Under the pieces are notes generated by a model, which searched no databases, was not told where the DNA came from, and worked only from the letters and a program-made list of their open reading frames with translations. A stretch of DNA of 64,000 nt. Source: Thermodesulfobacteriota bacterium. Lineage in GTDB: Bacteria > Desulfobacterota > Desulfobulbia > Desulfobulbales > SURF-16. Shown in pieces: positions 1 through 16,722 of the stretch; position 1 is the first letter of the stretch; every line of letters begins with the position of its first letter. The stretch spans positions 5,575 to 69,574 of the forward strand of contig JBDLIE010000005.1 of NCBI GenBank assembly GCA_039715015.1. The letters run 5' to 3'. Made by a program: the position numbers and the translations under genes.

Positions 1-27
1 AATGGTGATTCGATTATGAGGATTATC

Positions 28-67
28 CACCTTCTTACTTCTCAACTACTTATTTCTCAAATTCTCC
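28..67. repeat. pyrimidine-rich repeat arm (ccaccttcttacttctcaactacttatttctcaaattctcc); partial copy of the ttctcaacttctcaaattc family, cut by the window edge
   Basis: Shares the words ttctcaac / tttctcaaattc with the right arms at 2190-2211 and 11738-11788. Lies directly upstream of the ACP start. Confidence 0.5.
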
Positions 68-82
68 ATATAGAGGCATCCC

Positions 83-334
83 ATGACGCGCGATGAAATA
101 AAAAATTTAATCCTGGATATCATTGCTGATATTGATGAAGACGCAGAATTCGATGGTTTGGACCCTGATAAACCTCTTCGCGATCAGCTTGACCTTGATT
201 CTATGGATTTTCTTGACATCGTTATGGAACTCCGCAAGCGTCATCAATTACAGATTCCTGAAGAGGATTATCCTGAGCTTGCCACTCTAAATAGCTGTGT
301 CAACTATCTCGAACCAAAGCTGAAAGACAAATAA
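83..334 (+). CDS. acyl carrier protein
   Basis: 83-aa ORF. DLDSMDFLDIVMEL fits the ACP phosphopantetheine-attachment Ser motif. It is the first gene of a co-directional lipid cluster. Confidence 0.85.
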   Translation: MTRDEIKNLILDIIADIDEDAEFDGLDPDKPLRDQLDLDSMDFLDIVMELRKRHQLQIPEEDYPELATLNSCVNYLEPKLKDK

Positions 335-338
335 GAAT

Positions 339-1715
339 TTGGCTGACTACCAGCTTGTCATAATCGGCGCAGGTCTTTCCGGCCTCGCCTCCGGCATACG
401 TGCTGCCCGTTTTGGTTTAAAGACCCTCATCCTTGAGCAGCATTCACTTCCCGGTGGATTAAACTCCTATTATTTCCGTAAAGGTTTCTTGCTTGAAACC
501 GGCCTCCATGCAATGACCAACTATGCAGAGGCTGGCGATAAACGTGCACCTTTAAATCGTCTCTTTCGGCAACTGAAGTTGTCGCGCAAGAAATTCGCTA
601 CCCACCAGCAATTCTCCTCCCTGATCCGCTTTCCGCATACATCTCTGCAGTTTTCAAACGACATTACTCTTCTGCAGGCTGAGATTGATGAGCATTTTCC
701 CCATTGTCGTGATTCCTTTCAGGATTTGCTGACCAATGTTGCTGATTACGACCCTTTTGCTCCGTCATCCTGGCGCTCTACCCGCCAATTTCTTAACAAT
801 CTGATACCTGACCCCTTGCTCATCGATATGCTTCTGCTGCCCCTTATGGTTTATGGCAATAGCGAGGAGCATGATATGGACCTTGGCCAGTTCGTCATTA
901 TGTTTCGCTCAATATTTCTTGAGGGATTCTTCCGGCCTGACGACACCATGAAGGAGTTCCTTGCTATGCTTGTTGAGCATTATAAGGGCTTTGGTGGAGA
1001 GCTGAGATACAAGGCTAAAGTCGAGTCTGTTGAACGAAAAGATGAAGAGGTGAAGGGGGTCCGGATCGCTGGGGGTGATTATGTCAGTTGTGATACCTTG
1101 CTTTCGACGGTGGGTGCACCTGGCACGGCAAAACTTGTTGACTGGCCTAAAGAGCCCGCAAACTATGAAGGGCGAATGAGTTTTGTAGAATCCATCTCGG
1201 TTTTACCTTCTGCGCAGCGGCGTGTTCTCAATGCCGACCACACCATCATTTTTTATAATAGTCAGCAGGAACTATCATATGCCAGACCGCAAAGAGCTTT
1301 GAGTCCGGACTGGGGTGTTATTTGTTTCCCTGAAAACTTCCATGACCTGCCTAAACAGGATTTTTTTCAGGTTCGGGTTACCAATGCAGCAAATTATGAT
1401 ATCTGGAAGCAGACAAATTCTGAAGAATATCAACAGTTGAAGGTAGATGCGGAGGCTCAGACCTTTGCAGTCGTATCTGAAATAATTGGGAATTATCAGA
1501 AGAATAGAGTATATCAGGATAGCTTTACACCGCTTACCATTGAACGTTTTACATCCAAAGCTCAAGGGGCTGTCTATGGAAGTCCCGTCAAAATTAAAGA
1601 CGGCTTAACTCCATACAGCAATCTCTTCGTCGCTGGTACTGACCAAGGCTTCTTGGGTATTGTTGGCGCAATGTTGAGCGGGGTAACCATCGTGAATCAG
1701 CAGGTCTTGAGGTAG
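339..1715 (+). CDS. FAD/NAD(P)-binding oxidoreductase, phytoene-desaturase (CrtI)-like
   Basis: N-terminal Rossmann motif VIIGAGLSGLASG...LEQ. Length about 458 aa, typical of the CrtI/amine-oxidase family. TTG start 5 nt after the ACP stop. Confidence 0.75.
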   Translation: MADYQLVIIGAGLSGLASGIRAARFGLKTLILEQHSLPGGLNSYYFRKGFLLETGLHAMTNYAEAGDKRAPLNRLFRQLKLSRKKFATHQQFSSLIRFPHTSLQFSNDITLLQAEIDEHFPHCRDSFQDLLTNVADYDPFAPSSWRSTRQFLNNLIPDPLLIDMLLLPLMVYGNSEEHDMDLGQFVIMFRSIFLEGFFRPDDTMKEFLAMLVEHYKGFGGELRYKAKVESVERKDEEVKGVRIAGGDYVSCDTLLSTVGAPGTAKLVDWPKEPANYEGRMSFVESISVLPSAQRRVLNADHTIIFYNSQQELSYARPQRALSPDWGVICFPENFHDLPKQDFFQVRVTNAANYDIWKQTNSEEYQQLKVDAEAQTFAVVSEIIGNYQKNRVYQDSFTPLTIERFTSKAQGAVYGSPVKIKDGLTPYSNLFVAGTDQGFLGIVGAMLSGVTIVNQQVLR

Positions 1716-1736
1716 AAGTTGAGAAATAAGAATTTG
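1715..1736. repeat. left arm of inverted repeat flanking the four-helix-bundle gene (gaagttgagaaataagaatttg)
   Basis: 21 of 22 nt are complementary to 2190-2211. The arm starts on the last base of the upstream stop codon. Confidence 0.85.
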
Positions 1737-1787
1737 TGAAATAAGAACAACAGCTTCTTAATTTACTTCGTCAGCAAGGCAAGTTAA

Positions 1788-2145
1788 ATGGCAGCAGCTA
1801 AAAGTTTTCAGGATTTGGTGGTTTGGCAGAAGGCGCACACCTTTGTCTTACGAGTATATCAAGTAACTACTGAATTTCCTGCAGATGAACGCTTTGGATT
1901 GACTTCACAGTTTCGCCGGGCCGCAGTTTCCATACCTGCCAATATTGCCGAAGGTTTCCGTAAGAGCGGTAAAGCGGATAAGCTTAGATTCTACAACATC
2001 TCCCAAGGCTCCCCTTGAGGAATGTCGATATTATGTTCTTCTAGTAAGTGACTTAGGATTCGCCGAAGTTCCCGAACTTGAGGTCTTGTTAGAGGAGGTG
2101 AGTAAATTGCTAAATGCTTACAACCGATCCATACGGACATCATAA
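1788..2145 (+). pseudogene. four-helix-bundle protein (23S rRNA intervening-sequence protein family), frameshifted
   Basis: Two overlapping ORFs (1788-2018 and 1945-2145). Together they read FQDLVVWQKAH...RFGLTSQFRRAAVSIPANIAEGF...KLRFYNISQGS / LEECRYYVLLVSDLGF...LLNAYNRSI, which is colinear with the family. The frames join if one C is removed from the C4 run at 2011-2014. Confidence 0.8.
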
Positions 2146-2189
2146 ATTTTAAAAAAGATGCTCCACTACTTTTTTTACTACCTATTTGA

Positions 2190-2211
2190 CAAATTCTTAC
2201 TTCTCAACTTC
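2190..2211. repeat. right arm of inverted repeat flanking the four-helix-bundle gene (caaattcttacttctcaacttc)
   Basis: Reverse complement of 1715-1736 with one mismatch. Ends 10 nt before ATG 2222. Confidence 0.85.
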
Positions 2212-2221
2212 TCAGAAAACA

Positions 2222-3631
2222 ATGCCTTTCACTCCTCTTAACGAAACAAAAGATAAGTATGATGTCATCGTCATCGGCTCCGGTCTCGGTGGTCTTACCT
2301 GCGCCAACCGTCTAGCAAGTGTTGGTCACTCGGTTCTTCTTCTCGAGCATCATTTTAAGCTCGGTGGTCTTGCCACCTGGTTCAAACGTAAATCCCATGT
2401 TTTTGACGTGTCCCTCCATGGATTTCCTTATGGGATGGTCAAGACTTGCAAAAAGTATTGGACAAAAGAAATTCGTGATTCCATTGTCCAACTTAAGGAT
2501 ATCGTTTTCGATAATCCGCAGTTTTCCTTGAAAACAACCTTTGACAAGACAAATTTTAGCGATCTGTTAGTTAAGAAATTTAAAATTGCCAGAGGTGTGG
2601 TGGATAATTTCTTTGAGACCGTCAATAAGATGAATTTCTACGACGATCTCTCCATGACAACCAGAGAGCTCTTTGAGAAGTTTTTTCCCGGCCGGACAGA
2701 TGTCCATCGTTTTCTCATGGAGCCCATCACCTATGCCAACGGCTCAACATTTGACGAGCCAGCCATTACCTACGGCATTGTCTTTTCAAACTTCATGAAT
2801 AAGGGCGTCTTTACCTTTAAAGGCGGCACAGACAAGCTCATTGGCCTGATGGGCGAAGAGCTGCAGCGTAACGGCGTTACTATCTGCACCAAGGCCAAGG
2901 TGGATAAGGTCGTTGTTGAAAATGGAAAGGTCACAGGGGTTGCTGTGGGTGGCCGAATTATTAATTCCCCGTGTGTTGTCTCAAACAGCGGAATAACTAA
3001 TACCATTTATAATCTTGCCGGCCGTGAGGCCTTTTCCGAAGATTTTTTAAACCAGATTGACACGGTCAAGGTCAATAACTCCAGCTGTCAGGTTTACTTT
3101 GGTCTGAAGCCCGGCGAATCATTCCCTGCTGTTGGTGACCTTCTCTTTACCTCAACCTCTGAAGAGTTTTCCTCCCAAGAGATGCTGAAGGCGGACACCA
3201 AGAGCCGCACTTTCTCTGTCTATTATCCGAAAACAAGACCGGATGGCAAAGAGGATTATACCGTTGTGGCCTCCATGAACGCCGATTACGATGACTGGGC
3301 GAACATGACTGACGCGCAATACAAGAAGGCCAAGGAGGATATGATAGAGCGTTGTTTTGATGATCTTGAGCGCTATATCCCCGGCATTCGCAATAAGTGT
3401 GACTGGGTAGAGGCCGCTACCCCCATGACTTTTAACCGTTATACCTTGCATACCAAGGGCACTTCCTTTGGCACCAAATTCGAGGGCCTTGATGTTTCTC
3501 GTAATCTTTTCAAGGTATTACCTGGCCTTTTCCACGTTGGCTCTGTGGGTATCATTATGAGCGGCTGGCTCGGTGCCATCAACTACGGCGTCATTGTCGC
3601 CAACGATGCAGATGCCTATCTGCGTAGTTAG
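2222..3631 (+). CDS. FAD/NAD(P)-binding oxidoreductase, phytoene-desaturase (CrtI)-like, second paralogue
   Basis: [16 protein letters not shown]...LLEHH Rossmann motif. The ORF track opens at TTG 2186, but that stretch is the inverted-repeat arm, so ATG 2222 (MPFTPLNE) is preferred. Confidence 0.75.
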
Positions 3632-3657
3632 CAGCTTCCAATTTTATCATAGAAATT

Positions 3658-4398
3658 ATGTCAGATTTTAATGACCAGAAAATAGTCGTAACCGGCGCAA
3701 CACGGGGAATCGGTGCCGCCATCTCCTTGGCGTTTCTTAGCCAGGGGGCTACTGTTATTGGCCTTTATGGCGGTAATGATTCGGCAGCTGAGGCCTTTCG
3801 TGGCCAATGTGGTGATAATGCCCAGCGTCTCCATCTCTTTAAATGCGATGTCAGTGATTACGCTGCTGTTGAGGCCTTCTATACCGATATTGAATCGCGG
3901 TTTGACACCATTGATGTCTTGGTCAATAATGCCGGGATACGCCGTGATGCCGTTCTTGCCATGATGAAGGAGGAAGATTGGCGCCAGGTTATTGATATTA
4001 ACCTTACTGGCGGCTACAACATGAGTAAATTCGCTGTCCAACTCATGATGAAGCAGAAGTATGGCCGTATAATTTTCATCACCTCACCCATGGCCCATTT
4101 GGGTTTTGTTGGCCAGGCCAACTATGCTGCATCCAAGGCCGGCCAGATTGGTATGATGAAGTCTCTTTGCAAAGAAACGGCAAAGCGTAAAATTACGGTT
4201 AACTGTGTGTCGCCAGGCTTTATCGCCACCGAGCTTCTTGATGATCTAGAGAAGGAACAGGTAAAGGCCTATAAGAAAATGGTGCCGGCGCGGCGTTTTG
4301 GTAAACCAGAAGAGGTTGCTGATTCTGTTCTTTTCCTTGCCGGACGCAATGCTGCATATATCAATGGCGCTGTCCTGGAAATTACCGGCGGTCTGTAA
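3658..4398 (+). CDS. fabG: 3-oxoacyl-ACP reductase (SDR), FabG-like
   Basis: TGATRGIGAAIS cofactor motif, NNAG, and the YAASKAG catalytic Y-x3-K. 246 aa. Confidence 0.85.
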   Translation: MSDFNDQKIVVTGATRGIGAAISLAFLSQGATVIGLYGGNDSAAEAFRGQCGDNAQRLHLFKCDVSDYAAVEAFYTDIESRFDTIDVLVNNAGIRRDAVLAMMKEEDWRQVIDINLTGGYNMSKFAVQLMMKQKYGRIIFITSPMAHLGFVGQANYAASKAGQIGMMKSLCKETAKRKITVNCVSPGFIATELLDDLEKEQVKAYKKMVPARRFGKPEEVADSVLFLAGRNAAYINGAVLEITGGL

Positions 4399-4442
4399 AA
4401 TACCGATACAGAACGCAGAATTCTGAATTCAGAAATGCCTTT

Positions 4443-4895
4443 GTGAAAAAAATGGATATACAAGACTCTGAATTCATTACATCACGTATTCCCCACAGGC
4501 CTCCTTTTCTTTGGCTTGATTCTATTATTTCTCTCACCAATGATGAGATTGTAGCTGAAAAAGAGATTGCTGCTGATCTTGATGTCTTTAATGGCCATTA
4601 CCCGGATTATCCCATAATGCCAGGGGTCCTTCTTTGTGAGGCTGTTTTCCAGGCAGGTGCTCTGCTCATATCTGAAAGTCTCAATAAAAATGAGGTTGAG
4701 GCTCCAGAAGGTGTTCCTGTCCTTACCCGGATTCTCGGGGCTAAATTTAAACGTGAAGTGGTGCCGGGCGATACCATTACCCTGACCGCTGCTCTTGCTG
4801 AAAAAGTAGGGCCAGCCTGGTTTATGAAGGGGTCGGTAAAGGTGGCTGGTAAGGTGGCCGTCAAGGTTGAGTTTGCCTGCACCTTAAAAAGCTAG
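4443..4895 (+). CDS. fabZ: 3-hydroxyacyl-ACP dehydratase, FabZ/FabA hot-dog fold
   Basis: IPHRPPFLWLD...FNGHYPDYPIMPGVLLCEAVFQAG is colinear with the E. coli FabZ active-site region. Confidence 0.8.
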   Translation: MKKMDIQDSEFITSRIPHRPPFLWLDSIISLTNDEIVAEKEIAADLDVFNGHYPDYPIMPGVLLCEAVFQAGALLISESLNKNEVEAPEGVPVLTRILGAKFKREVVPGDTITLTAALAEKVGPAWFMKGSVKVAGKVAVKVEFACTLKS

Positions 4896-4930
4896 AAGGT
4901 AAAGGAGGTACAGAAGGTAAAGGAGGTACA
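4895..4930. repeat. perfect 18-bp tandem direct repeat x2 (gaaggtaaaggaggtaca)
   Basis: Read directly. Each unit carries an aaggagg Shine-Dalgarno-like core. It is followed by a pyrimidine-rich tract at 4963-5010. Confidence 0.9.
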
Positions 4931-5012
4931 GAAGAGATGAGTGATTAAAGAAACTTTTTTTGCCTCTTTACATTCATCTAACTTTTCTAACTTCTTTAAC
5001 TTCTCATCTGAA

Positions 5013-5813
5013 ATGAGTTTTCTTGGACTGCATGGTAAAAAAATAATTGTCTTTGGCTTGGCAAACAAGAAGTCTGTTGCCTGTGCTATAGGTAAGGTAC
5101 TTGTGGAAGAGGGCGCGGAGCTGGTCCATGTAGTTCGCAGCGAGGAGCGGGCCCAGACTGCTCGGAAGCTTTTTCCCAAAAGTCCTGTTTTTATCTGTGA
5201 CGTTGAGGATGAGGAAAACATTGTCCGGCTCCGTGATGAGATTAAAGGCAAAATCGATGCCCCTATAGATGGCATCGTTCATTCCATTGCCTTTGCCAAC
5301 TACTCTGAGGGGATGAAGCCTTTTCATGCCACCTTGAAAAAGGATTTTCTTCAAGCCGTGGATATATCCTGCTTTTCCTTTATTTCCATTGCTAATCATT
5401 TCAAGGACATGCTTGCTCCTCATGGTTCCATGGTGACCATTTCCATTTCAGCAACCCGGATGGCAGCTGAGAATTATGGCTATATGGCCCCGGTAAAGGC
5501 CGCCCTTGAATCCTCGCTTTGTTTTCTCACTAAGAGTTTTTCAGCCTTTTCCGAGGTTCGTTTTAACGCAGTTTGCCCCAGTCTGTTAAAAACGTCGGCT
5601 TCAGCAGGAATTCCGGGCTATATTGACAGCTATCTCTTTGCCGAAAAAGTCATCCCCCGTAAAAAGGCCCTCAAGACTCAAGAGGCTGCCGATGTTGCCG
5701 CCTTTTTACTTTCTGAACGTTCCTCCGGCATGACCGGTCAGTGCCTGGTGGTCGATGCTGGTATGTCCCTTAATTATTTCGATGCCGCGGTGGTGGAAAA
5801 GGTCGTAAGTTAA
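5013..5813 (+). CDS. fabI: enoyl-ACP reductase, FabI-like
   Basis: [21 protein letters not shown] resembles E. coli Fab[34 protein letters not shown] supplies the catalytic Tyr and Lys. ATG 5013 is preferred over GTG 4941, which lies in the repeat region. Confidence 0.8.
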
Positions 5814-5933
5814 TGTTTGCCACGGAACCCACGAAATTGTCCGAAGAAGTTAAAGAATATAAAGGAGGTAAAGAATGTAGAGGAAGAAGATGAGAATTGT
5901 TAGGAGTAGGGGGCAAGGTGCTTGTTTTTCCTT

Positions 5934-5978
5934 TACCTTCTCTACCTTCTCTACCTTCTCTATCTTCTCTATCTTCTG
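5934..5978. repeat. 9-bp tandem repeat x5 (taccttctc x3, then tatcttctc, tatcttctg)
   Basis: Read directly. It is a pure-pyrimidine-rich tract facing a purine-rich tract at about 5842-5895. It ends 9 nt before the oleA ATG. Confidence 0.9.
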
Positions 5979-5986
5979 TTTTCTTC

Positions 5987-7021
5987 ATGAAATATTCCCG
6001 CGTTTGTCTCCATAATCCTGGCTATGCCCTGCCGCCCAATGAGGTCTCTTCGTCTGCAATTGAGGCTCGCCTTGCCCCTGTTTACCAGCGTCTTAAATTA
6101 CCTGAAGGCCGTCTTGAGTTGATGAGTGGCATTAAAGCTCGCCGTTTCTGGAACAAAGGAACACGGCCCAGCGATGGTGCTGCCCTGGCCGGCAAAGATG
6201 CCATAGCAAAGGCCGGAGTTAAGCCTGATGAACTTGAGTGTTTAATATTTACCTCTGTCTGCCGGGACATGATGGAGCCTGCTACTGCCGCCTTTGTTCA
6301 TCGTCAGCTTGACCTGCCTGAAAGATGCCAGATCTTTGATCTCTCCAATGCCTGTCTTGGCTTTTTAAACGGCATGATAATGCTGGCCAATATGATTGAG
6401 CTTGGCCAGATAAAGAAGGGGATTGTTGTTGCCGGAGAAACAGCCGAGGACTTGGTGGAATCAACCATTAATCATCTCCTTCAAGACAACAGTCTGACCC
6501 GCAAATCCATCAAGCCCGCCTTTGCCTCCTTTACCATTGGTTCCGGTGCCGTAGCCCTGGTGATGCAGGATAAACAATGTGCTGACACCGGCCACTATCT
6601 GGTTGGTGGTGCCTGCCGGGCCAATACAACCCATAATGATCTTTGCCAGGGCGGCCAGGCCGGTACCGAAGGCGTGCTCATGGCCACTGATTCTGAGCAA
6701 CTTCTCCAAGAGGGCGTCGACACCGCTGCCCTTTGCTGGCAGGACTTTCTGCCAGAGCTTAATTGGCAAAAAGATGATATAGATCGTTTTTTCTGCCATC
6801 AGGTGGGCAGGGCCCATGCCCAGCTCCTTTTTGAGACCCTGGATCTTGACCCTGCCAAAAATTTTGAAACATTGCCTGTGCTGGGCAATGTCGGTTCTGT
6901 CTCGGCACCTATTACCATGGCCATGGGTATAGAGCAGGAGGTCCTCAGGAACGGGGACAGGGCCGCCCTGTTGGGTATTGGCAGCGGCATCAACTCCCTT
7001 ATGCTTGGCATTGACTGGTAA
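5987..7021 (+). CDS. oleA: OleA, thiolase-fold (FabH-like) acyl-CoA head-to-head Claisen condensing enzyme
   Basis: Colinear with my recollection of Xanthomonas OleA, not an alignment: GIKARRFW, TSVCRDMMEPATAA, FDLSNACLGFLNGM, VVAGE, HQVGRAH, LGNVGSVSAPI, GDRAALLGIGSGIN..W. Followed by oleBCD in canonical order. Confidence 0.85.
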   Translation: MKYSRVCLHNPGYALPPNEVSSSAIEARLAPVYQRLKLPEGRLELMSGIKARRFWNKGTRPSDGAALAGKDAIAKAGVKPDELECLIFTSVCRDMMEPATAAFVHRQLDLPERCQIFDLSNACLGFLNGMIMLANMIELGQIKKGIVVAGETAEDLVESTINHLLQDNSLTRKSIKPAFASFTIGSGAVALVMQDKQCADTGHYLVGGACRANTTHNDLCQGGQAGTEGVLMATDSEQLLQEGVDTAALCWQDFLPELNWQKDDIDRFFCHQVGRAHAQLLFETLDLDPAKNFETLPVLGNVGSVSAPITMAMGIEQEVLRNGDRAALLGIGSGINSLMLGIDW

Positions 7022-7899
7022 TGGAGAATCTAGCTCAGTATCCCTTTTCCCCGAAGACCATCACCATTAATGGCAACCGTCTTTCCTACCTTGATGAGGG
7101 GCAGGGGCCTGTTTTGGTCATGCTGCACGGCAACCCTTCCTGGTCCTATCTCTACCGGAACCTGGTCAGTCATCTCCGTGATCGTTTTCGGATCATTGTC
7201 CCTGATCACATGGGGTGCGGTTTTTCTGATAAGCCCCAGGATTACGCCTATACCTTACGAACCCATATTGATAATCTCACTACGCTGCTAGATCATCTTG
7301 ATGTAGAGCAATGTAGCTTGGTAGTCCATGATTGGGGCGGAGCCATAGGCATGGGTTGGGCCGTTGATCATCCGGAGAAGGTTGATAAGATTTGTGTCTT
7401 GAACACCGCCGCCTTTTTGTCCAAGCGCATTCCCCTGCGTATCAATATCTGCCGTATCCCTGTTGTCGGGAAGATGATTGTGCAAGGCTGTAATGGTTTT
7501 GCCTGGCCGGCGACCTTTATGGCGGTGACAAAAAAAATGACTAAAGAGGTGGCTCAGGGATTTTTATACCCTTATGATTCCTGGGCCCATCGAATAGCCA
7601 CCCATCGTTTTGTTCTGGATATACCTTTGCAAAAAAAGCACCCATCCTGGCCAGATCTGGCCCATATTGATAAAAGTCTGGCTAAGCTTAAGGGCAAACC
7701 CATGCTCCTGTGCTGGGGCGGCAAGGATTTTTGTTTTAATGACCATTTTTACAAGGAGTGGCAGCACCGTTTCCCTGCTGCCCAATGCCATTATTTCCCT
7801 GCTGCCGGTCATTATATTCTTGAAGACGCCTTTGATGAAGTGGCTCCCTTGATTGACAAATTCTTTTCCAATTCAAAGAGTAGTGCTGATGAATTTTAA
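7021..7899 (+). CDS. oleB: OleB, alpha/beta-hydrolase (haloalkane-dehalogenase-like) beta-lactone decarboxylase
   Basis: MLHGNPSWSYLYR and VVHDWGG nucleophile-elbow region. The TAATG overlap with oleA suggests translational coupling. Confidence 0.8.
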   Translation: MENLAQYPFSPKTITINGNRLSYLDEGQGPVLVMLHGNPSWSYLYRNLVSHLRDRFRIIVPDHMGCGFSDKPQDYAYTLRTHIDNLTTLLDHLDVEQCSLVVHDWGGAIGMGWAVDHPEKVDKICVLNTAAFLSKRIPLRINICRIPVVGKMIVQGCNGFAWPATFMAVTKKMTKEVAQGFLYPYDSWAHRIATHRFVLDIPLQKKHPSWPDLAHIDKSLAKLKGKPMLLCWGGKDFCFNDHFYKEWQHRFPAAQCHYFPAAGHYILEDAFDEVAPLIDKFFSNSKSSADEF

Positions 7900-9505
7900 T
7901 ATCGCCCAAACCTTCGCCGATGTAGCCGCCGAGCGACCTGCCGAGGTTGCTTTGGTTCAAGGAAAGAGGGGTAGATATCAAGAGTGCACTTTTAAAGATC
8001 TCCACGAGCAAAGCGCCCTTTATGTCGCAGCCTTAAAAGGGCAGGGGATTTGCCCGGGGCAGCGGGTTATGCTGATGGTGCCCCCGTCGCTGGAGTTTCT
8101 CTCCCTCACCTTTGCCTTGTTTAGCCTGGGCGCCACGGTTATTCTCATTGATCCAGGTATGGGGTATAAGAATCTTCTACGCTGCATTGGTGCTGTCAGG
8201 CCTGATGTCTTGATCGCCATTCCTAAGGCCCATATCTTTAAGCTCATCTTTCCCCGGCCTTTTCAGACTATCTGCACCAATATCTGTGTTGGGAGATCCT
8301 TGGGAATCTTCGGCCATTCCTTGGCCACCATATGCTCTCAGGTTGAACCTGATTTTAAGGTCTTTGAGGCCGGTGAAGATGATTTGGCTGCTATCATTTT
8401 CACCACTGGTTCCACGGGGCCGCCTAAAGGTGTCCAGTATAGCCATGGGATTTTCCATGCCCAGCTTGAGCTAATCCGCTCCTATTATAAGATTGGCCCG
8501 GGTGAAATCGACCAGCCTGCCTTTCCCCTCTTTGCACTTTTTTCTACAGCTCTCGGCGCTAGGGCGGTCTTGCCCGACATGAATCCTGCTAAACCCGCCC
8601 AGGTCAATCCTGAGGAATTTATCCGCTCTCTTAATGATCAGGGTGTGACCTATTCTTTTGGTTCTCCTGCAATCTGGAGCGTTGTGAGCCGTTATTGTCT
8701 GCAAAAAAAGATTGTTTTACCTCTTAAAAAAATCCTCATGGCCGGCGCCCCTGTTTCCGGGGAACTTATTGAGCATGTTCTAGAAATTATGGCCCCGGGG
8801 GGAGAGGTACATACCCCTTACGGTGCCACTGAGAGCCTGCCTATTTCCTCTATGGCCGGCACTGAGGTCGTTGACGAAACATGGGCCCAAACTCAGATTG
8901 GCAAGGGAACGTGTGTTGGCAGACCGTTACCCGGGATCACCATCAAAGTCATGAGGGTTGCGACAAGGCCAGTGGAAAATTATAGCCAGGTTGCAATTCT
9001 CCCAGTTGGTGAAATTGGTGAAATTATTGTTAAAGGACCTGTGGTGACTCGGGCCTATGATCATAATCCCGAGGAAAGTTACGCAGCTAAGATACAGGAT
9101 GGCGATTCATTCTGGCACCGCATGGGCGATATGGGATATTTTGATGATAAGGGCCGTCTCTGGTTTTGTGGACGAAAGGCCCATCGGGTCCTGACTTCCC
9201 ACGGGCCACTCTACACTATCCCCTGCGAGGCGATTTTCAATGTCCATAAGGATGTTTATCGAACAGCCCTTGTGGGAATAGGCCCGGCGGGGCGCCAGAC
9301 CCCGGTTCTATGTGTCGAATGCCGAGATCAAAAGTGCGACAAGGAACGGCTTGCCATGGAGCTGCGGGCCCTTGGTATCCAAAATAAGGTGACAAGAGGG
9401 ATAGATGAAATCCTCTTTCATCCGGCATTCCCGGTGGATATCCGTCATAATGCCAAAATCTTCAGAGAGAAGTTGGCTGTTTGGGCTGCTCGAAAATTAG
9501 GGTAA
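7889..9505 (+). CDS. oleC: OleC, AMP-dependent synthetase family beta-lactone synthetase
   Basis: Adenylate-forming motifs IIFTTGSTGPPKG, YGATE and GDMGYFDDKGRLWFCGRK. ATG 7889 overlaps the oleB stop. Confidence 0.8.
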   Translation: MNFNIAQTFADVAAERPAEVALVQGKRGRYQECTFKDLHEQSALYVAALKGQGICPGQRVMLMVPPSLEFLSLTFALFSLGATVILIDPGMGYKNLLRCIGAVRPDVLIAIPKAHIFKLIFPRPFQTICTNICVGRSLGIFGHSLATICSQVEPDFKVFEAGEDDLAAIIFTTGSTGPPKGVQYSHGIFHAQLELIRSYYKIGPGEIDQPAFPLFALFSTALGARAVLPDMNPAKPAQVNPEEFIRSLNDQGVTYSFGSPAIWSVVSRYCLQKKIVLPLKKILMAGAPVSGELIEHVLEIMAPGGEVHTPYGATESLPISSMAGTEVVDETWAQTQIGKGTCVGRPLPGITIKVMRVATRPVENYSQVAILPVGEIGEIIVKGPVVTRAYDHNPEESYAAKIQDGDSFWHRMGDMGYFDDKGRLWFCGRKAHRVLTSHGPLYTIPCEAIFNVHKDVYRTALVGIGPAGRQTPVLCVECRDQKCDKERLAMELRALGIQNKVTRGIDEILFHPAFPVDIRHNAKIFREKLAVWAARKLG

Positions 9506-9523
9506 GCAGGGAGCAGAGAAAAG

Positions 9524-10522
9524 ATGAAAAATGTCCTGGTAACTGGTGGGGGAGGGTTTATCGGTCTTGGTATTGTCCGTTCCCTCTGTAAAATGGGAGT
9601 TCGTACCTTGGTGGTGGGCCGCCATCGCTATCCTGCCGTTGAAGAACTGGGAGCCCATTGTTTAGTCGGTGACATCCGCGATAAAGAGTTCATGGTTCAG
9701 GCCTGCTGTAATGTTGATACGGTCTTTCATGTGGCTGCTAAGGCTGGTGTTTGGGGAAGTTGGGACGATTATTTTGGCATTAATGTTAAAGGCACAGAGA
9801 ATATTATTGCCGCTTGCCAGGAAAATTTGGTCTCCCGTTTGGTCTATACCAGTACCCCTAGCGTTGTGTTTGATCGTGGTCATTTGCGCGGTGTTGATGA
9901 GACAGTACCCTATGCAGAGGATGTTCTTTGCCATTATGCTCGGAGCAAAATCATGGCAGAAATCCTTGTTCTTCAAGCCAACAGTCCCACCTTGAGGACC
10001 ACAGCGCTCCGCCCTCATCTTGTTTGGGGACCTGGCGATACGAATCTCATCCCTCGCCTCATCAAGCGTGGTCGTGCCGGCAGCCTGAAGATTGTCGGTG
10101 ATGGCCGAAATAAAGTTGATATATCGTATATCGATAACGTAGTGGATGCCCATATTCAGGCTGCTATTAATTTAGAGCGATACGGTACGGCAGCAGGTGA
10201 GATCTTTTTTATCTCCCAGGGAGAGCCTGTTAAACTCTGGGAATGGATTAATGATCTCTTTGTTCAGCTCGCCATTCCGCCAGTGGCCAAGTCCATTACC
10301 TTTGATAAGGCCTATAAAATTGGTTTTCTTCTGGAGAAGATCTATGGATTCCTGCGCATCAAAAGGGAACCGAAGATGACCCGTTTTGTTGCTGAGCAGC
10401 TCGCTAAATCACACTGGTTTTCAATCAAAAAGGCAGAAAAGGTTCTGCCCTATACCCCAAGGGTGTCAACCGCTGAAGGAGTAAAAAGGGTAGTGGCCTG
10501 GGTCCGTGAGGTGGGCCTGTGA
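9524..10522 (+). CDS. oleD: OleD, NAD(P)H-dependent 2-alkyl-3-ketoalkanoate reductase (3-beta-HSD / epimerase SDR family)
   Basis: VLVTGGGGFIGLGIV, YARSK catalytic Y-x3-K. Position after oleC. Confidence 0.8.
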   Translation: MKNVLVTGGGGFIGLGIVRSLCKMGVRTLVVGRHRYPAVEELGAHCLVGDIRDKEFMVQACCNVDTVFHVAAKAGVWGSWDDYFGINVKGTENIIAACQENLVSRLVYTSTPSVVFDRGHLRGVDETVPYAEDVLCHYARSKIMAEILVLQANSPTLRTTALRPHLVWGPGDTNLIPRLIKRGRAGSLKIVGDGRNKVDISYIDNVVDAHIQAAINLERYGTAAGEIFFISQGEPVKLWEWINDLFVQLAIPPVAKSITFDKAYKIGFLLEKIYGFLRIKREPKMTRFVAEQLAKSHWFSIKKAEKVLPYTPRVSTAEGVKRVVAWVREVGL

Positions 10523-10953
10523 GAGGAAAATGTGGGGGGCTGCTTGTTGCCTGCCAGTTTGTTTTTCTCGCCTTGCTGATTGCAACAACCAGCTGGCGCG
10601 ATCTAAACCTCCTTGCCCTCCCATTTTTTCTTGCCTCACTCTTTTTGGCTGGCTGGGCCATCAAGGTGATGCGCCTTGGTCATTTTAATATCAGGCCGGC
10701 AATAAAAGAGGGCGCTATTCTTGTCACCCATGGTCCCTACCGCTATATCAGGCATCCCATGTATGCCAGTATCTTGCTTGCCGGTACCGGCCTTCTTCTG
10801 ATTACTTTTAATTGGCTTCGTCTCTGTGCGTTTTGTCTTTTGTGGCTTGTTTTATATCTTAAACTTCGTATGGAAGAAAAACTTTTGGAGCAGCATTTCC
10901 CCGACTACTTATCCTATAAAAAACGTTCTCGTTTTTTTTCTCCCTGGTTCTGA
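10519..10953 (+). CDS. ICMT/PEMT-family membrane methyltransferase
   Basis: HGPYRYIRHPMYASILLAGTGLLL matches the isoprenylcysteine carboxyl / phospholipid methyltransferase signature. Several hydrophobic segments. The start overlaps the oleD stop by 4 nt. Confidence 0.65.
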   Translation: MRGKCGGLLVACQFVFLALLIATTSWRDLNLLALPFFLASLFLAGWAIKVMRLGHFNIRPAIKEGAILVTHGPYRYIRHPMYASILLAGTGLLLITFNWLRLCAFCLLWLVLYLKLRMEEKLLEQHFPDYLSYKKRSRFFSPWF

Positions 10954-11018
10954 GAGTTTAATTCTCATTTTTCTTGCTATCTAAGGTAAAAGAGCTAAGA
11001 TGACCACCTGGTCATCTT

Positions 11019-11675
11019 ATGGATTTTCACAAACTTGAAAAAGGCACATTTGCCAATTTAGCCGACGAAAAGCAGCATGCCATAATGAAGGCGGCGATCT
11101 TTGAGTTCGCCTCTCAGGGCTACCAGAAGGCGAGTTGTAACAGTGTCGTTAAGGAAGCTGGAATTTCTAAGGGCTCCCTGTTTCAATATTTCGGCAGTAA
11201 AGAAGGCCTCTTTCTTTTTGTCTTTGGCCGCTTTATTGGCAAGGTGAAAGCTTCGGTGAAAGAGGCAACCACCAGGAAGACAGATTTTTTTGATCTCGTA
11301 CAGGCCATTTTGGTAGCTGGTTTGCAGTTTGTTGATAGCTACCCGCAATATTTTCAGATGTACCTCCGGGTTCTCTTTGAGCAGGAGATCCCGCGCAGGG
11401 AGGAGCTGTTGGCTGAAGTCCGCCTCTTCTCCAGGGAGTATTTCGGCCCCCATTGCCAAGCTGCTCAGGAACAGGGCATCATTCGCAATGATATTGCGGT
11501 TGAAATGGTCATCTTCATGCTTGATGCGGCTATTGATCGTTTTTTGCAGGCCTATGCCAGGCCCTATCTCGACAGTGGTCTCGGCCTGGCTGGTTTGAGC
11601 AAGAAAGAGCTGCAGGAGAGGGTGGCGGAATTACTCATTGTTTTAAAGGATGGCTTAAGGCCTGCCACTAAATAA
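11019..11675 (+). CDS. TetR/AcrR-family transcriptional regulator
   Basis: N-terminal HTH region AAIFEFASQGYQKASCNSVVKEAGISKGSLFQYFGSKEGLF. Confidence 0.85.
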   Translation: MDFHKLEKGTFANLADEKQHAIMKAAIFEFASQGYQKASCNSVVKEAGISKGSLFQYFGSKEGLFLFVFGRFIGKVKASVKEATTRKTDFFDLVQAILVAGLQFVDSYPQYFQMYLRVLFEQEIPRREELLAEVRLFSREYFGPHCQAAQEQGIIRNDIAVEMVIFMLDAAIDRFLQAYARPYLDSGLGLAGLSKKELQERVAELLIVLKDGLRPATK

Positions 11676-11788
11676 GAATTTGAGGAATAAGAAATAAGAA
11701 GTTGAGAAGAAGGTACTTTTCTTTATTGATAACCTTTCCTTCTATTTATTTCTCAACTTCTCAAATTCTTGTTTCTCAAATTCTCAAC
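11676..11788. repeat. cargo-less imperfect hairpin of the same word family as the IVS-like cassette arms
   Basis: The purine-rich arm 11676-11713 (gaatttgaggaataagaaataagaagttgagaagaagg) faces the pyrimidine-rich arm 11738-11788 (ccttctatttatttctcaacttctcaaattcttgtttctcaaattctc). It starts right after the TetR stop codon. Confidence 0.75.
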
Positions 11789-11811
11789 AATAATTCAACA
11801 TAGATAGAAAA

Positions 11812-12906
11812 ATGGAATCACTAGTAATTAAAGCAGGGTTAGGGGATATTCTTGACAAGGTGAAGAGTGGTGAGCGTATCACCAGAGAGGAGGGGGTTCG
11901 TCTCTATGAATGTCCTGATCTCCTTGCTGTTGGCTATCTTGCCAATTTGGTGCGGGAACGCAAGAATGGCCATAGGGCTTACTTTATCTACAATCAGCAC
12001 CTCAACTATTCAAATATCTGCACCAATCTCTGTAAGTTCTGTGCCTTTGGTAAAGAAAAGGATACCGACAAATCGTACGAGATGACTGTGGACGAGGCCA
12101 TTGGCAAGGTGCGTGACCGTCTTGATGAACCTATCACGGAGGTTCATATGGTGGGTGGCATTCATCCTGATCTCCCCTTTTCTTACTACACCGATATTCT
12201 CAAGGGCATCAAAGATGTCCGCCCCGATATCCATATCCAGGCCTTTACCTGTGTTGAGATTGATCACCTGGCCAAACTTGCCGAAAAGCCGGTGAAAGAA
12301 ACCCTGGAAATCCTCATGGATGCGGGTCTTGATTCCATCCCCGGGGGCGGTGCTGAAGTTTTTAGCCCCCGCATTAGGGAAAAAACCTGCCCGGATAAGC
12401 TCTCCGGTGAGGGGTGGCTCGAGGTGGCGAAAACCGCCCATCGTCTTGGCTTAAACACCAATGCCACCATGCTCTACGGCCATATCGAAACCATAGAGGA
12501 ACGGGTCGAGCATCTTGCCGCTCTTCGTGAGGCCCAGGATGAAACTGGTGGCTTCCTGGCCTTTATTCCCCTGGCCTTTCATCCCAAGAATACCGAGATG
12601 GACGATCTCTCCCGGACTTCAGGTGTTGATGACCTGAAGAATATCGCTGTTTCCCGGATCTTCCTTGATAACTTCCCTCATATCAAGGCCTATTGGGTCA
12701 TGATCGGCCCCAAGATGGCCCAAGTTGCCCTTTCGTTTGGCGCTGATGACGTGGACGGCACTGTCAAGGAGGAGATCATCACCCATATGGCAGGAGCTGA
12801 AACCGAACAGGCCATGGCCATTCCTGAGCTTGTCCGGATCATCAAGGAGGCTGGCCGCACTCCTATCCAGCGCGGCACTCTGTATGATGTTGTTAAGGAA
12901 TATTGA
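11812..12906 (+). CDS. mqnE: radical-SAM futalosine-pathway enzyme, probably aminodeoxyfutalosine synthase MqnE
   Basis: CTNLCKFCAF radical-SAM CxxxCxxC. CofH/MqnC/MqnE family layout of about 364 aa. The MqnE versus MqnC assignment rests only on remembered N-terminal patterns and is uncertain. Confidence 0.6.
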   Translation: MESLVIKAGLGDILDKVKSGERITREEGVRLYECPDLLAVGYLANLVRERKNGHRAYFIYNQHLNYSNICTNLCKFCAFGKEKDTDKSYEMTVDEAIGKVRDRLDEPITEVHMVGGIHPDLPFSYYTDILKGIKDVRPDIHIQAFTCVEIDHLAKLAEKPVKETLEILMDAGLDSIPGGGAEVFSPRIREKTCPDKLSGEGWLEVAKTAHRLGLNTNATMLYGHIETIEERVEHLAALREAQDETGGFLAFIPLAFHPKNTEMDDLSRTSGVDDLKNIAVSRIFLDNFPHIKAYWVMIGPKMAQVALSFGADDVDGTVKEEIITHMAGAETEQAMAIPELVRIIKEAGRTPIQRGTLYDVVKEY

Positions 12907-13034
12907 TGGCCACCTTGTACTCATACAAAATGGCTAATTTTTTGAGACACCCTTGAGAAACTTTTTCAAAGAGGAGAATGAAGAAAAACTCAGAGTTAGA
13001 AGATCGTTCTCTTTTGTTGTGAGTAATAAAAAAA

Positions 13035-14084
13035 ATGAAAGAATTGATTACAAAAATTTTAGATGGTGAACGAATAACTAGGGACGAAGGGGCAAAGCTC
13101 TTTCGTGAGGGCAGTTTTTATGAACTCGGTATGCTCGCTGATGAGATTCGTAAACGCAAGCATCCGGAACCCATCGTCACCTATGTCATAGATCGTAATA
13201 TCAACTATACCGATATATGTCTTTCAGCCTGTAAATTCTGCGCCTTTTTTAAAGCTCCTGAAGATAAGGCTGGATCCGTGCTCTCCTTTGAGGAGCTTGG
13301 TAAAAAGATTGAAGAGACCCAGCGCCTTGGCGGCAACCAGATTCTTCTTCAAGGCGGTCTGCATCCTGATCTGAGTTTGGAATATTATGAAGATATGTTG
13401 CGCTTCATGAAGGGCTATGGAGTCCATGTCCATGGTTTTTCTCCACCCGAAGTGATGCATTTTTCCCAGATTTCTGGAAAATCCATGCCTGAGGTCCTGA
13501 TCCGTCTGCAGCGAGCTGGTCTTGACTCCATTCCCGGCGGTGGTGCCGAGATCTTAAATGATCGGGTGCGTCAAGATACAGCGCCAAAGAAATGTTCAGC
13601 AGACGAATGGATCGCTGTAATGGAAGAGGCCCATAAGCAGGGCATGCGCACCACAGCCACCATGATGTTTGGCCATGTTGAGACGTTGGAAGAACGACTT
13701 GAACATCTTCAGCGCCTTCGTGATCTGCAGGATCGCACGGGTGGTTTTACCGCCTTTATACCCTGGCCCTTTCAACCTGACAATACGGTCTTTGATGACA
13801 TGCCAAAGACCACCGGTCATGAGTATCTTAAGATGCTTGCTCTGTCTCGTATCTTCCTTGATAATTTTGACAATATCCAGGCCTCCTGGGTCACCCAGGG
13901 GCCGAAGATTGCCCAGATCTCCCTCTTCTTTGGAGCCAATGATTTTGGTTCCACCATGATTGAGGAGAACGTGGTGGCGGCGGCAGGGGTCAGTTTTCGT
14001 CTCTCCGAGGATGAAATTCGTAAATTGGTGACCGCAGTGGGCATGACCCCTGTGCAGCGCCGGATGGATTATACCCCGGTCTGA
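13035..14084 (+). CDS. mqnC: radical-SAM futalosine-pathway enzyme, probably cyclic dehypoxanthinyl futalosine synthase MqnC
   Basis: VTYVIDRNINYTDICLSACKFCAFF. Paralogous to the preceding gene. Same assignment caveat. Confidence 0.6.
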   Translation: MKELITKILDGERITRDEGAKLFREGSFYELGMLADEIRKRKHPEPIVTYVIDRNINYTDICLSACKFCAFFKAPEDKAGSVLSFEELGKKIEETQRLGGNQILLQGGLHPDLSLEYYEDMLRFMKGYGVHVHGFSPPEVMHFSQISGKSMPEVLIRLQRAGLDSIPGGGAEILNDRVRQDTAPKKCSADEWIAVMEEAHKQGMRTTATMMFGHVETLEERLEHLQRLRDLQDRTGGFTAFIPWPFQPDNTVFDDMPKTTGHEYLKMLALSRIFLDNFDNIQASWVTQGPKIAQISLFFGANDFGSTMIEENVVAAAGVSFRLSEDEIRKLVTAVGMTPVQRRMDYTPV

Positions 14085-14086
14085 TC

Positions 14087-15268: not shown

Positions 15269-15270
15269 CC

Positions 15271-16113: not shown

Positions 16114-16123
16114 AGGTTCTACG

Positions 16124-16678
16124 ATGAAGGATAAAATTATAGTTGCCATTACCGGTGCCTCTGGAATGATGTATGCCAAAGAGCTGCTGGCCATTCTTGA
16201 TGGCACGGATGTCGAGATCCACGCCATTATTTCCGAGGCTGGGGAGCAGGTTTTGAAACTTGAGCTCGGGATGCAAAAGAGTGATTTTCCCAGGGTGCGC
16301 TGGTGGGACATTAAACAGTTTACGGCCCCCATGGCCTCTGGTTCTGCCCGTTTCCAAGCCATGGCAGTGGTTCCTTGTACCATGGGCACCCTGGCCGCCA
16401 TTGCCAGTGGTCTGTCGACAAATCTCATCCACCGGGCCGCTGACGTCATGCTGAAGGAAAGACGTAAGGTTGTTTTATCAGTACGCGAGACTCCTTTTAA
16501 CCGTACCCATCTGCAAAATATGCTCGCCGTCCATGATGCCGGTGCTACTATCTGTCCGGCCATGCCTTCTATGTATCAGAAGCCGCAATCCATTGAAGAA
16601 ATGGCCCGGAACTATGCATCTCGAGTTGTCGAGACATTGGGCCTTGAGGTGGACTATCCCCGCTGGCAGGGTGAGTAG
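16124..16678 (+). CDS. ubiX: UbiX-family flavin prenyltransferase
   Basis: IIVAITGASG N-terminus and VVPCTMGTLAAIASG. 184 aa. Confidence 0.85.
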   Translation: MKDKIIVAITGASGMMYAKELLAILDGTDVEIHAIISEAGEQVLKLELGMQKSDFPRVRWWDIKQFTAPMASGSARFQAMAVVPCTMGTLAAIASGLSTNLIHRAADVMLKERRKVVLSVRETPFNRTHLQNMLAVHDAGATICPAMPSMYQKPQSIEEMARNYASRVVETLGLEVDYPRWQGE

Positions 16679-16722
16679 TTGCACCTTTCTGCATCTAAAT
16701 AACAATAGAGAAGATCGAAAAA

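Follow-up and report, generated by a model that had tools for sequence, protein, structure and literature searches.

We analysed a stretch of 64,000 nucleotides (64 kb), referred to below as the window, from contig JBDLIE010000005.1 (assembly GCA_039715015.1) of a Thermodesulfobacteriota bacterium belonging to the Desulfobulbales. Near its beginning, between positions 83 and 10953, eleven intact co-directional open reading frames (ORFs) were registered on the plus strand, separated by very short gaps or overlapping each other. The same genes had been described in a reading of this DNA made from the sequence only, and the ORF listing together with Pfam and NCBIfam profiles, applied with their curated cutoffs to assign the proteins of this region to families, agreed with it. 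A set of proteins resembling those of type II fatty acid synthesis and two CrtI-like flavoenzymes, hereafter Crt1 and Crt2, is followed in this array by OleA, OleB, OleC and OleD, the enzymes of long-chain olefin synthesis:

83-334, plus strand: acyl carrier protein (ACP), 83 aa; PF00550 (PP-binding), 37 bits; DSM phosphopantetheine-attachment motif
339-1715, plus strand: Crt1, flavoprotein binding flavin adenine dinucleotide (FAD), 458 aa; Amino_oxidase, 49.5 bits, and NAD_binding_8
2222-3631, plus strand: Crt2, FAD-binding flavoprotein, 469 aa; Amino_oxidase, 46.7 bits, and NAD_binding_8
3658-4398, plus strand: FabG-like 3-oxoacyl-ACP reductase (ketoreductase, KR); NF009466, 251 bits against a cutoff of 222
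4452-4895 (longer start at 4443), plus strand: FabZ-type 3-hydroxyacyl-ACP dehydratase (DH); PF07977, 76.5 bits
5013-5813, plus strand: divergent FabI-like enoyl reductase (ER) of the short-chain dehydrogenase/reductase (SDR) type; Yx6K motif, about 162 bits on FabI models
5987-7021, plus strand: OleA, thiolase-fold non-decarboxylative Claisen condensing enzyme; NF006720, 447 bits against 285
7021-7899, plus strand: OleB, alpha/beta-hydrolase similar to haloalkane dehalogenases, predicted beta-lactone decarboxylase; Abhydrolase_1, 109 bits
7889-9505, plus strand: OleC, AMP-dependent beta-lactone synthetase; NF006754, 661 bits against 478
9524-10522, plus strand: OleD, NAD(P)H-dependent 2-alkyl-3-oxoalkanoate reductase; best match NF042422, 370 bits
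10519-10953, plus strand: small membrane methyltransferase of the PEMT/ICMT family; PF04191, 44 bits, and PF04140, 40 bits

The array extends beyond the left edge of the window. Logan contig L001 (7.9 kb), 99.95% identical to window positions 1-5962, reaches 1.9 kb further upstream and contains at its positions 639-1886, on the same strand as the array, a gene for a ketosynthase (KS) of 415 aa (PF00109/PF02801), which ends 37 nt before window base 1 and 119 nt upstream of the ACP gene. A gene of unassigned family, divergently oriented, lies 5' of it. Thus, the region 83-10953 comprises eleven of the twelve genes of one single-strand array that starts with a FabF-like ketosynthase just upstream of the window, and the module preceding the ole genes owns an elongating condensing enzyme. 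The previous statement that elongating ketosynthases apart from OleA are absent holds inside the window only and was an artefact of its edge. Scans for promoters and terminators gave counts that did not exceed those of shuffled controls, and no internal terminator was prominent in the array. Together with the tight or overlapping spacing this is compatible with a single transcription unit, without being a proof of it, and the twelve genes are probably co-transcribed.

The KS is FabF-like (317 bits on TIGR03150 with a cutoff of 494; best PDB match 1E5M) and has an intact Cys-His-His triad, while the gating Phe is replaced by Met in 67 of 71 members of its family. On TIGR02813, the model of PfaA, it scored 88 bits against a cutoff of 1010. 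The ACP fell below every curated ACP equivalog cutoff (at best 44.6 bits against 66), and its motif LDLDSMDFLD is kept in 53 of 66 orthologues. The FabG-like protein reached 280 of the 298 bits set for TIGR01830 and passed only the subfamily model NF009466. In the FabZ-type dehydratase the His...Glu active site and the motifs HYPDYPIMPG and LLCEAVFQ are present; its score on NF000582 was 112.9 bits against 113, and its precomputed Pfam matches were ApeI/ApeP-like. The best PDB matches of the FabI-like protein were FabI enzymes (E = 1e-35), and its scores on the best FabI models compare with cutoffs of at least 360, the one for the housekeeping FabI equivalog being 370. The ACP, the KS and the FabG-like, FabZ-type and FabI-like proteins thus all score under the equivalog cutoffs of housekeeping fatty acid synthase (FAS), with catalytic motifs intact. 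Since all FAS-like members of the array remain under these cutoffs, they can be regarded as specialised paralogues.

Crt1 and Crt2 share 23% identity with each other (E = 5e-25), Crt2 being the better conserved of the pair. Both carry an N-terminal GxGxxG motif and exceed the Pfam cutoffs of Amino_oxidase and NAD_binding_8. The cutoff of the family model TIGR02734 (crtI_fam, 238 bits) was missed by both (48.6 bits for Crt1 and 89.1 for Crt2), and both scored far under all cutoffs of the CrtD, CRTISO, CrtO and HpnE equivalogs. The closest solved relatives by sequence were CrtI (4DGK) and carotenoid desaturase 4REP, with E-values from 1e-5 to 1e-11 (1e-5 for Crt1 and 4DGK). The AlphaFold2 model of Crt1 was poor, with a predicted local distance difference test score (pLDDT) of 60.8, and its top fold matches, again 4REP and 4DGK at template modelling (TM) scores not above 0.38, echoed the sequence result. 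For Crt2 (pLDDT 72.8, predicted TM score 0.72) the top Foldseek match was 4REP with a TM score of 0.64, followed by protoporphyrinogen oxidase, amine oxidases and CrtI, a series which does not discriminate between desaturase, isomerase and oxidase. Crt1 has more than 4000 homologues, mostly in Desulfobulbales. The family of Crt2 is compact: a profile-free scan of 1.8 billion representatives registered 179 clusters at E <= 1e-30, about 10 of them full length, and the homologues are 468-469 aa long. The names "phytoene desaturase" and "retinol 13,14-reductase", given to such proteins by some sources, were rejected as functions because scores on the curated subfamilies are far below the cutoffs. 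Carotenoid genes (crtB/crtE) adjoined Crt1 and Crt2 at none of 80 related loci, where the neighbours are KS, ACP, FabG and FabZ. Judged by sequence, both proteins have a CrtI-like fold and fall outside the curated CrtI family cutoff, and homology does not tell their reaction.

OleA aligned over its full length to the Xanthomonas OleA structures 3FK5 and 3ROW (E = 1e-61), and its motifs RDMMEPAT (Glu), SNACL (Cys), HQVG (His) and GNVG (Asn) are kept in 28-29 of 29 orthologues. We take the corresponding reference residues of X. campestris OleA to be C143, E117 (the second-chain Glu), H285 and N315. OleB contains the nucleophilic Asp in VHDWGG and the His in AAGHYILED; it reached 164 bits against 241 on dehalogenase models, the profile libraries used holding no OleB-specific model. 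OleC scored 518 and 515 bits on models of olefin beta-lactone synthetases with cutoffs of 900 and 850, and OleD scored 370 and 365 bits on NF042422 and NF042423 with a cutoff of 580, the next family following at 135 bits, and 172 bits on 3Beta_HSD. Since OleC and OleD remain under the equivalog cutoffs, they probably represent a divergent branch. The genes oleA-B-C-D are contiguous on one strand (5987-10522) in the canonical order, with overlaps of 1 nt (oleA/oleB) and 11 nt (oleB/oleC, ATG at 7889) and a near-overlap with an 18-nt gap between oleC and oleD. The canonical order and overlapping boundaries had been described before, and the chemistry cited there for the pathway, head-to-head condensation and a beta-lactone intermediate, is correct. 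By its sequence the Ole part is a further member of the known OleABCD pathway, and an olefin is its predicted product. Canonical oleABCD clusters of Xanthomonas campestris and Shewanella oneidensis share with the window the four genes, their order, the near-overlaps and the catalytic motifs of OleA and OleB; they differ from it by the seven-gene substrate module that precedes oleA in our array and the ICMT-like gene that follows oleD.

Relatives of Crt1 were scanned with one genome per species. At least 586 loci were registered, and the best 80 of them were analysed by tblastn with the window proteins; counts of KS and ACP refer to loci with enough upstream sequence, and counts of downstream genes to 47 loci with at least 9.5 kb of downstream sequence. 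Nearly all of the 80 loci were from Desulfobulbales (Desulfobulbus, Desulfogranum, Desulfobia, Ca. Electrothrix, Ca. Electronema), close relatives being labelled Desulfurivibrionaceae or Desulfobulbaceae, with one locus from Chloroflexi and one from Planctomycetota. KS and ACP stood directly 5' of Crt1 at 64 of 64 loci, Crt2 came after Crt1, and FabG and FabZ were next in most cases. FabI-OleA-OleB-OleC-OleD continued this core in exactly the order of the window at 25 of 47 loci, and at two more until the contig end. Hence, the whole order KS-ACP-Crt1-Crt2-FabG-FabZ-FabI-OleA-B-C-D exists in 25 species-level genomes with protein identities of 55-85%, i.e. it was kept over long divergence; KS, ACP and Crt2 are strongly conserved (70-93% identity). 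Within Desulfobulbales the FabI-like gene was found at 25 of 25 loci with ole and at none of 20 loci with the core only. Genes flanking the array are of housekeeping type (alaS, acs and an isochorismatase-like gene upstream, ATP-synthase b subunits or tolQRAB downstream), so the array is chromosomal and vertically inherited rather than an island. The sequence-only reading had proposed that the genes upstream of ole may prepare a substrate for OleA and that their synteny with ole should be compared across genomes; this comparison speaks for the proposal.

Additional links between the modules were found at three loci. In the planctomycete locus L081 the genes are arranged as Dus-KS-ACP-OleA-KS-Crt1-Crt2, and its OleA is 48% identical to that of the window over the full length, with catalytic motifs kept. 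The presence of OleA within the core in another phylum gives independent support to the connection of the core with ole. The Chloroflexi locus L080 combines KS-Crt1-Crt2-FabG-FabZ-FabI with a phosphopantetheinyl transferase (PPTase) and a FabD-like acyltransferase, and its gene content identifies it as a self-contained type II synthase. Finally, protein P0362 (625 aa) is an orthologue of Crt2 (51% identity) fused to a FabZ-type dehydratase (40% identity to FabZ of the window). Its gene lies on a metagenome contig of the Joint Genome Institute (L083, 2209-5792), where it is followed by an SDR gene with a product 45% identical to the FabI-like protein of the window and by a radical SAM gene. Such fusion of a dehydratase and a flavoenzyme suggests that Crt2 handles ACP-bound intermediates adjoining the dehydration step. 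The gene combination of L083 recalls the anammox set kuste3604/3607/3608.

Polyunsaturated acyl chains are known to arise in two ways, from O2-dependent desaturases or from Pfa-type megasynthases. A third way, anaerobic and combining a type II system with flavoproteins similar to phytoene desaturases, was proposed in 2009 for hydrocarbons of Desulfotalea and for ladderane precursors of anammox bacteria (PMC2649909). Rattray et al. described FASII-like clusters of Kuenenia and Desulfotalea psychrophila that contain amine-oxidase or "phytoene dehydrogenase" genes, in the latter DP2405, DP2406 and DP1860, of which DP2405 and DP2406 are an adjacent pair in a FASII-like locus; in D. psychrophila the hydrocarbons C31:8 and C31:9 made up about 5% of lipids, and neither ladderanes nor pfa genes were found (PMC2649909). 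Desulfotalea belongs to Desulfobulbales, like the organism studied here, and the Desulfotalea and Kuenenia clusters (kuste3603-3608, kuste3336) consist of the same kinds of genes as the window, i.e. FabF-like KS, ACP, FabZ, FabG and amine-oxidase-family flavoproteins. In the window the core is fused to a FabI-like gene and oleABCD, and no radical SAM gene is present inside the array. In a metagenome-assembled genome of Desulfotalea (locus L082) the six genes of the core are identical, but tol genes come after them, and ole genes were absent from the 10 kb fetched.

Substrate-synthase genes fused to oleABCD are also known. In Geobacter bemidjiensis, which makes C31:9 (hentriacontanonaene), the genes pfaDABC-oleABCD-pfaE stand in tandem, and C31:9 of Shewanella is attributed to OleABCD condensing two 16:4 chains supplied by the Pfa synthase (PMC4882568). 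As in the window, the chain-building system of these pfa-ole clusters lies directly 5' of oleABCD on one strand, their hosts are anaerobes or facultative anaerobes, and the product class, C31:8/C31:9, has been seen in D. psychrophila, a relative of the organism studied here. The window differs by having discrete KS, ACP, KR, DH and ER and two CrtI-family flavoenzymes, with no FabA-type domain; the longest ORF in its 64 kb has 813 aa, so it encodes no multidomain PfaA or PfaC protein. Thus, an array in which a type II/CrtI-like module is fused to ole represents a variant of the known architecture "substrate synthase plus ole", and our interpretation restates a published hypothesis (PMC2649909), now with much stronger comparative support; the novelty implied by the previous reading was overstated on both counts (PMC2649909, PMC4882568). 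Its remark that no characterised example of the combination is known was justified: the Kuenenia homologues did not complement crtI (PMC4790861), and the desaturase is still hypothetical in a review of 2026 (PMC13459092). In the literature searched we found neither a paper that links ole genes with the KS/ACP/Crt core nor an experimental resolution or biochemistry for the proposal of 2009.

On balance, and with an inclination that is not a strong one, we favour the view that KS-ACP-Crt1-Crt2-FabG-FabZ-FabI is a dissociated type II factory of unsaturated chains which feeds OleA and leads to a long polyunsaturated olefin. KS, its own ACP, FabG, FabZ, the FabI-like protein, Crt1 and Crt2 would build an unsaturated, probably polyunsaturated, ACP-bound chain without oxygen. 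OleA would then condense two such chains head-to-head, OleD would reduce the 3-keto group, OleC would close the beta-lactone and OleB would decarboxylate it into the long-chain olefin. The predicted product is a polyunsaturated hydrocarbon of C31:8/C31:9 type, as in D. psychrophila. By analogy, the best-supported reading of the array is a type II functional counterpart of pfa-ole, with the module located where pfa genes are located in Geobacter. Conserved synteny, the locus with OleA inside the core and the chemistry of a relative argue for joint work of core and ole, and polyunsaturation of the chain is suggested by one relative, D. psychrophila.

What exactly the flavoenzymes may contribute can be proposed with less assurance. 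Tentatively, Crt2 and/or Crt1 may isomerise or re-dehydrogenate the enoyl-ACP released by the dehydratase, so that the double bond survives elongation, in the manner of FabA, FabM and FabX or of the FabA-type domains of Pfa. We prefer action on enoyl-ACP, speculatively, because Crt2 occurs fused to FabZ, because the Crt genes are strictly paired with those of KS and ACP, and because the lifestyle is anaerobic; alternatively, Crt1 and Crt2 may desaturate the finished chain. It is also conceivable, though somewhat less likely than not, that the array is a complete O2-independent dissociated synthase of polyunsaturated chains, where flavoenzymes acting on ACP-bound enoyl intermediates replace the isomerising FabA-type dehydratase domains of Pfa. 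Known flavoenzymes give partial parallels. UfaD of the furan fatty acid pathway of Rhodobacter sphaeroides is a phytoene-dehydrogenase-like FAD protein desaturating a fatty acyl chain (PMC7380195), i.e. like the role proposed for the Crt proteins its activity is directed to an acyl chain and not to a carotenoid; compared by description, it is unlike Crt1 and Crt2 in using a phospholipid-bound methylated 18:1 substrate, in needing O2 in vivo and in having no linkage to KS, ACP or DH. FabX of Helicobacter pylori is a flavoenzyme acting as dehydrogenase/isomerase on acyl-ACP (PMC8626469). Like FabA and FabM, it keeps a double bond in type II elongation between the DH and the next KS, which is the role proposed here for the Crt proteins; according to the literature it is an FMN/[4Fe-4S] enzyme of unrelated fold, whereas Crt1 and Crt2 have the FAD fold with two dinucleotide-binding domains. 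Aryl-polyene (APE) clusters resemble the core in their discrete KS, ACP, KR and DH, in having no ER and in the ApeI/ApeP-like matches of the dehydratase; unlike them, the window has no chain-length-factor partner, aryl-starter, APE export or lipid-attachment genes. Nor, to our knowledge, do APE clusters contain a counterpart of the two flavoenzymes.

Several observations weigh against the proposed route from the core to the olefin. About 20 of the 47 loci, including every cable bacterium sampled and Desulfocapsaceae, contain the core only, with no adjacent ole. The core, therefore, has or also has a role independent of ole, and the set cannot strictly be called "private" to the Ole pathway. 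No genes for thioesterase, acyltransferase or PPTase were found in the array of the window, and FabD, FabH and PPTase were all missing from window positions 1-11700 and from L001. Characterised OleA enzymes take acyl-CoA, and hand-over from ACP to OleA is thus a gap in the scheme. The fusion of Crt2 with FabZ is known from one metagenomic contig of 5.8 kb. Crt1 and Crt2 are too distant from characterised enzymes for a reaction to be assigned: they reached 49-101 bits on models whose cutoffs lie at 238-587, and TM scores not above 0.64. Besides, kuste3336 and kuste3607, tested by Javidpour et al. in 2016, did not replace crtI and had no assignable activity in E. coli (PMC4790861); N-terminal fragments of these two proteins (128 residues, about 385 nt) match both Crt1 and Crt2 with 32-52% identity, mostly in the FAD motif.

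The most serious competing explanation, which we consider unlikely, supposes that the core KS-ACP-Crt1-Crt2-FabG-FabZ is a general anaerobic pathway for unsaturated membrane fatty acids replacing FabA/FabB, and that the ole genes, adjacent to it in some genomes, take their substrates from the ordinary acyl pool. In that case the olefin would have no unsaturation beyond that of bulk fatty acids, as in a product of C31:3 type. The occurrence of the core at every sampled Desulfobulbales locus, about 20 of them without adjacent ole, the housekeeping neighbours (alaS and acs; tolQRAB or ATP-synthase b subunits) and the 70-93% identity of KS, ACP and Crt2 are all natural for such a pathway, and the 13C signature of the D. 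psychrophila hydrocarbons does resemble that of monounsaturated fatty acids (PMC2649909). However, the product of the same bacterium, which lacks pfa genes, is C31:8/C31:9 and not C31:3 (PMC2649909), an OleA orthologue stands inside the core at L081, and ACP, KS and the FabI-like protein score well under housekeeping equivalog cutoffs. Two distinct flavoenzymes kept everywhere also seem more than one cis double bond requires. This explanation overlaps with the one that we favour, as chains for membranes and for olefins could alike come from the core.

Less probable still is an action of Crt1 and Crt2 after the Ole enzymes, by which the long hydrocarbon or its precursor would be dehydrogenated successively in the membrane, as phytoene is by CrtI, and an olefin of low unsaturation would be turned into C31:8/C31:9. 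The fold and the top sequence matches are indeed those of carotenoid desaturases working on long hydrophobic chains (4REP, 4DGK), the 13C similarity between hydrocarbons and monounsaturated fatty acids would fit (PMC2649909), and UfaD introduces its double bond beside one already present in a chain bound to lipid (PMC7380195). Nevertheless, the location of Crt1 and Crt2 next to KS and ACP at 64 of 64 loci, with ole following at only about half of the loci, is hard to reconcile with it; the fusion of Crt2 to a FabZ-type acyl-ACP dehydratase points to ACP-bound intermediates, and some eight dehydrogenations in a strict anaerobe would require an electron acceptor. A merely accidental neighbourhood, with the core making some other lipid or polyene (aryl-polyene-like or a ladderane-type precursor) and OleABCD using ordinary fatty acyl-CoAs, would agree with core-only loci having no enoyl reductase, with the ApeI/ApeP-like Pfam matches of the dehydratase, as in polyene clusters, with separability of the modules in evolution and with a G+C content of 0.48-0.53 in the ole genes (6001-9500) versus 0.43-0.48 in the upstream module (1-5500), which is a mild hint of separate histories, but it is quite improbable in view of the order, strand and tight spacing kept in at least 25 species at 55-85% identity, of the FabI-like gene that bridges the modules and also accompanies the Crt2-FabZ fusion, and of OleA inside the core in another phylum (L081).

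The connection of the core with ole is, therefore, argued here on new grounds: ole fusion in at least 25 species, OleA in the planctomycete core and the fusion protein of Crt2 with a dehydratase. The locus brings together the candidate genes and their consumer OleABCD in one array of about 12 kb, and its predicted neutral hydrocarbon product can be read by gas chromatography-mass spectrometry. The same fused array is present in cultured strains, namely isolate B35 (L030), Desulfogranum japonicum DSM 18378 (L044) and Desulfobulbus alkaliphilus DSM 24258 (L050), which makes the proposal of 2009 directly testable. If the hypothesis is true, it would mean new flavoenzyme chemistry on acyl-ACPs and a compact gene set for anaerobic production of polyunsaturated hydrocarbons. 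The reading as a complete O2-independent synthase, if true, would add a third, previously uncharacterised biochemical route to polyunsaturated acyl chains, would explain C31:8/C31:9 in Desulfobulbales without pfa genes, and might account for the initial steps of the route suggested for ladderane lipids of anammox bacteria.

Coordinates of four genes required correction, as the ORF listing placed their starts too far 5' (2186 for Crt2, 4941 for FabI, 5897 for OleA and 7853 for OleC); the starts at 2222, 5013, 5987 and 7889 were preferred because of homologue lengths and profile alignments. Other features of the region, located around and between the genes discussed so far, are:

1-82, plus strand: tail of the spacer between the FabF-like KS and ACP (119 nt in total), with one short-repeat copy at 32-56
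1714-2212, plus strand: cassette with a frameshifted pseudogene (1788-2145) of the PF05635 family (23S_rRNA_IVP, below IVP) and a flanking inverted repeat
10996-11675, plus strand: TetR-family regulator (11019-11675) with a 24-nt palindrome; TetR_N, 50 bits, and weak FasR/FadR-type matches

The cassette had been recognised previously as a frameshifted four-helix-bundle insertion between the CrtI-like genes, and this description is accurate. The IVP gene is split into two ORFs (1788-2018 and 1945-2145; 97 bits for the 5' part) by a single additional base within a run of C near 2008-2012, as follows from the alignment to intact copies of 119-125 aa, which occupy the same position between the Crt genes in L002 and L013. 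The frameshift is also present in the independent Logan contig, which is 99.95% identical. Around the pseudogene there is a 30-nt inverted repeat with arms at 1714-1743 and 2183-2212 (93% complementary). The short motif GAAATAAGAATTTG or its complement occurs in 7 copies (43-56, 328-341, 1723-1736, 2190-2203, 11669-11682, 11691-11704 and 11762-11775), all within 11.8 kb of the window start, whereas the other 52 kb have none; about 1 would be expected by chance. At 11675-11785, in the interval that separates the TetR gene from the menaquinone genes, an "empty" copy folds into a hairpin of about 110 nt (-43.7 kcal/mol, z = -8). In appearance the cassette is a palindromic element carrying the IVP ORF, and it recalls intervening sequences of rRNA with their RNase III stems.

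Tandem repeats of 9 nt precede the ATG codons of both the FabI-like gene (5013) and OleA (5987), first as a purine-rich array (AGAAGGTAA) and then as a pyrimidine-rich one. They occupy positions 4894-4934, 4977-5005, 5845-5895 and 5931-5977, and the arms 4894-4924 and 5929-5959, which bracket the FabI-like gene, are 90% complementary. Local folds at these repeats were weakly better than those of shuffled sequences (z = -1.3 and -1.7). Rfam matches within 1-12500 were sub-threshold plant-miRNA look-alikes on the purine/pyrimidine hairpin 5844-5979 and were rejected as chance. The repeat-rich spacer of 173 nt before oleA is the place where about 10 relatives, among them L005, L017, L024, L044, L050, L064, L065 and L079, have a conserved ORF of about 75-80 aa (f15), hydrophobic and possibly for a membrane protein, between the FabI-like gene and oleA.

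On the downstream side, oleD overlaps the ICMT-like gene by 4 nt. Among the 80 loci this gene follows oleD in one relative only (L013, 46% identity) and is, thus, a lineage-specific accessory, and the TetR gene was found at none of the other loci, so both were rejected as conserved members of the cluster. The TetR-family protein is a possible local regulator. A perfect 24-nt palindrome TAAGATGACCACCTGGTCATCTTA at 10996-11019 spans its start codon and is a candidate operator for TetR autoregulation or a candidate terminator of the ole array. Directly downstream (11812-17577) lies a futalosine-type menaquinone set, consisting of two MqnC/MqnE-like radical SAM genes, an amidohydrolase, a VitK2_biosynth (MqnA/D-type) gene and a UbiA prenyltransferase, which is not kept at related loci. 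The idea that these genes provide a linked electron acceptor for a CrtI-type dehydrogenase was rejected, as other loci have ATP-synthase or tol genes there.

Relatives carry insertions at other points of the array as well. In cable bacteria (L014, L018, L036, L040, L043) 1.4-2 kb of extra genes stand between Crt1 and Crt2 (6387-9531 in L018), and these inserts of Ca. Electrothrix and Ca. Electronema encode a cold-shock/DUF1294 protein and PAS-domain proteins. At some loci KS and ACP are likewise separated, by genes for an ATP-grasp/peptidase S58 protein and a deacetylase. L002 and L013 contain a PD-(D/E)XK (PDDEXK_3) gene between Crt2 and FabG. Intergenic spots of the operon seem to be favoured insertion sites.

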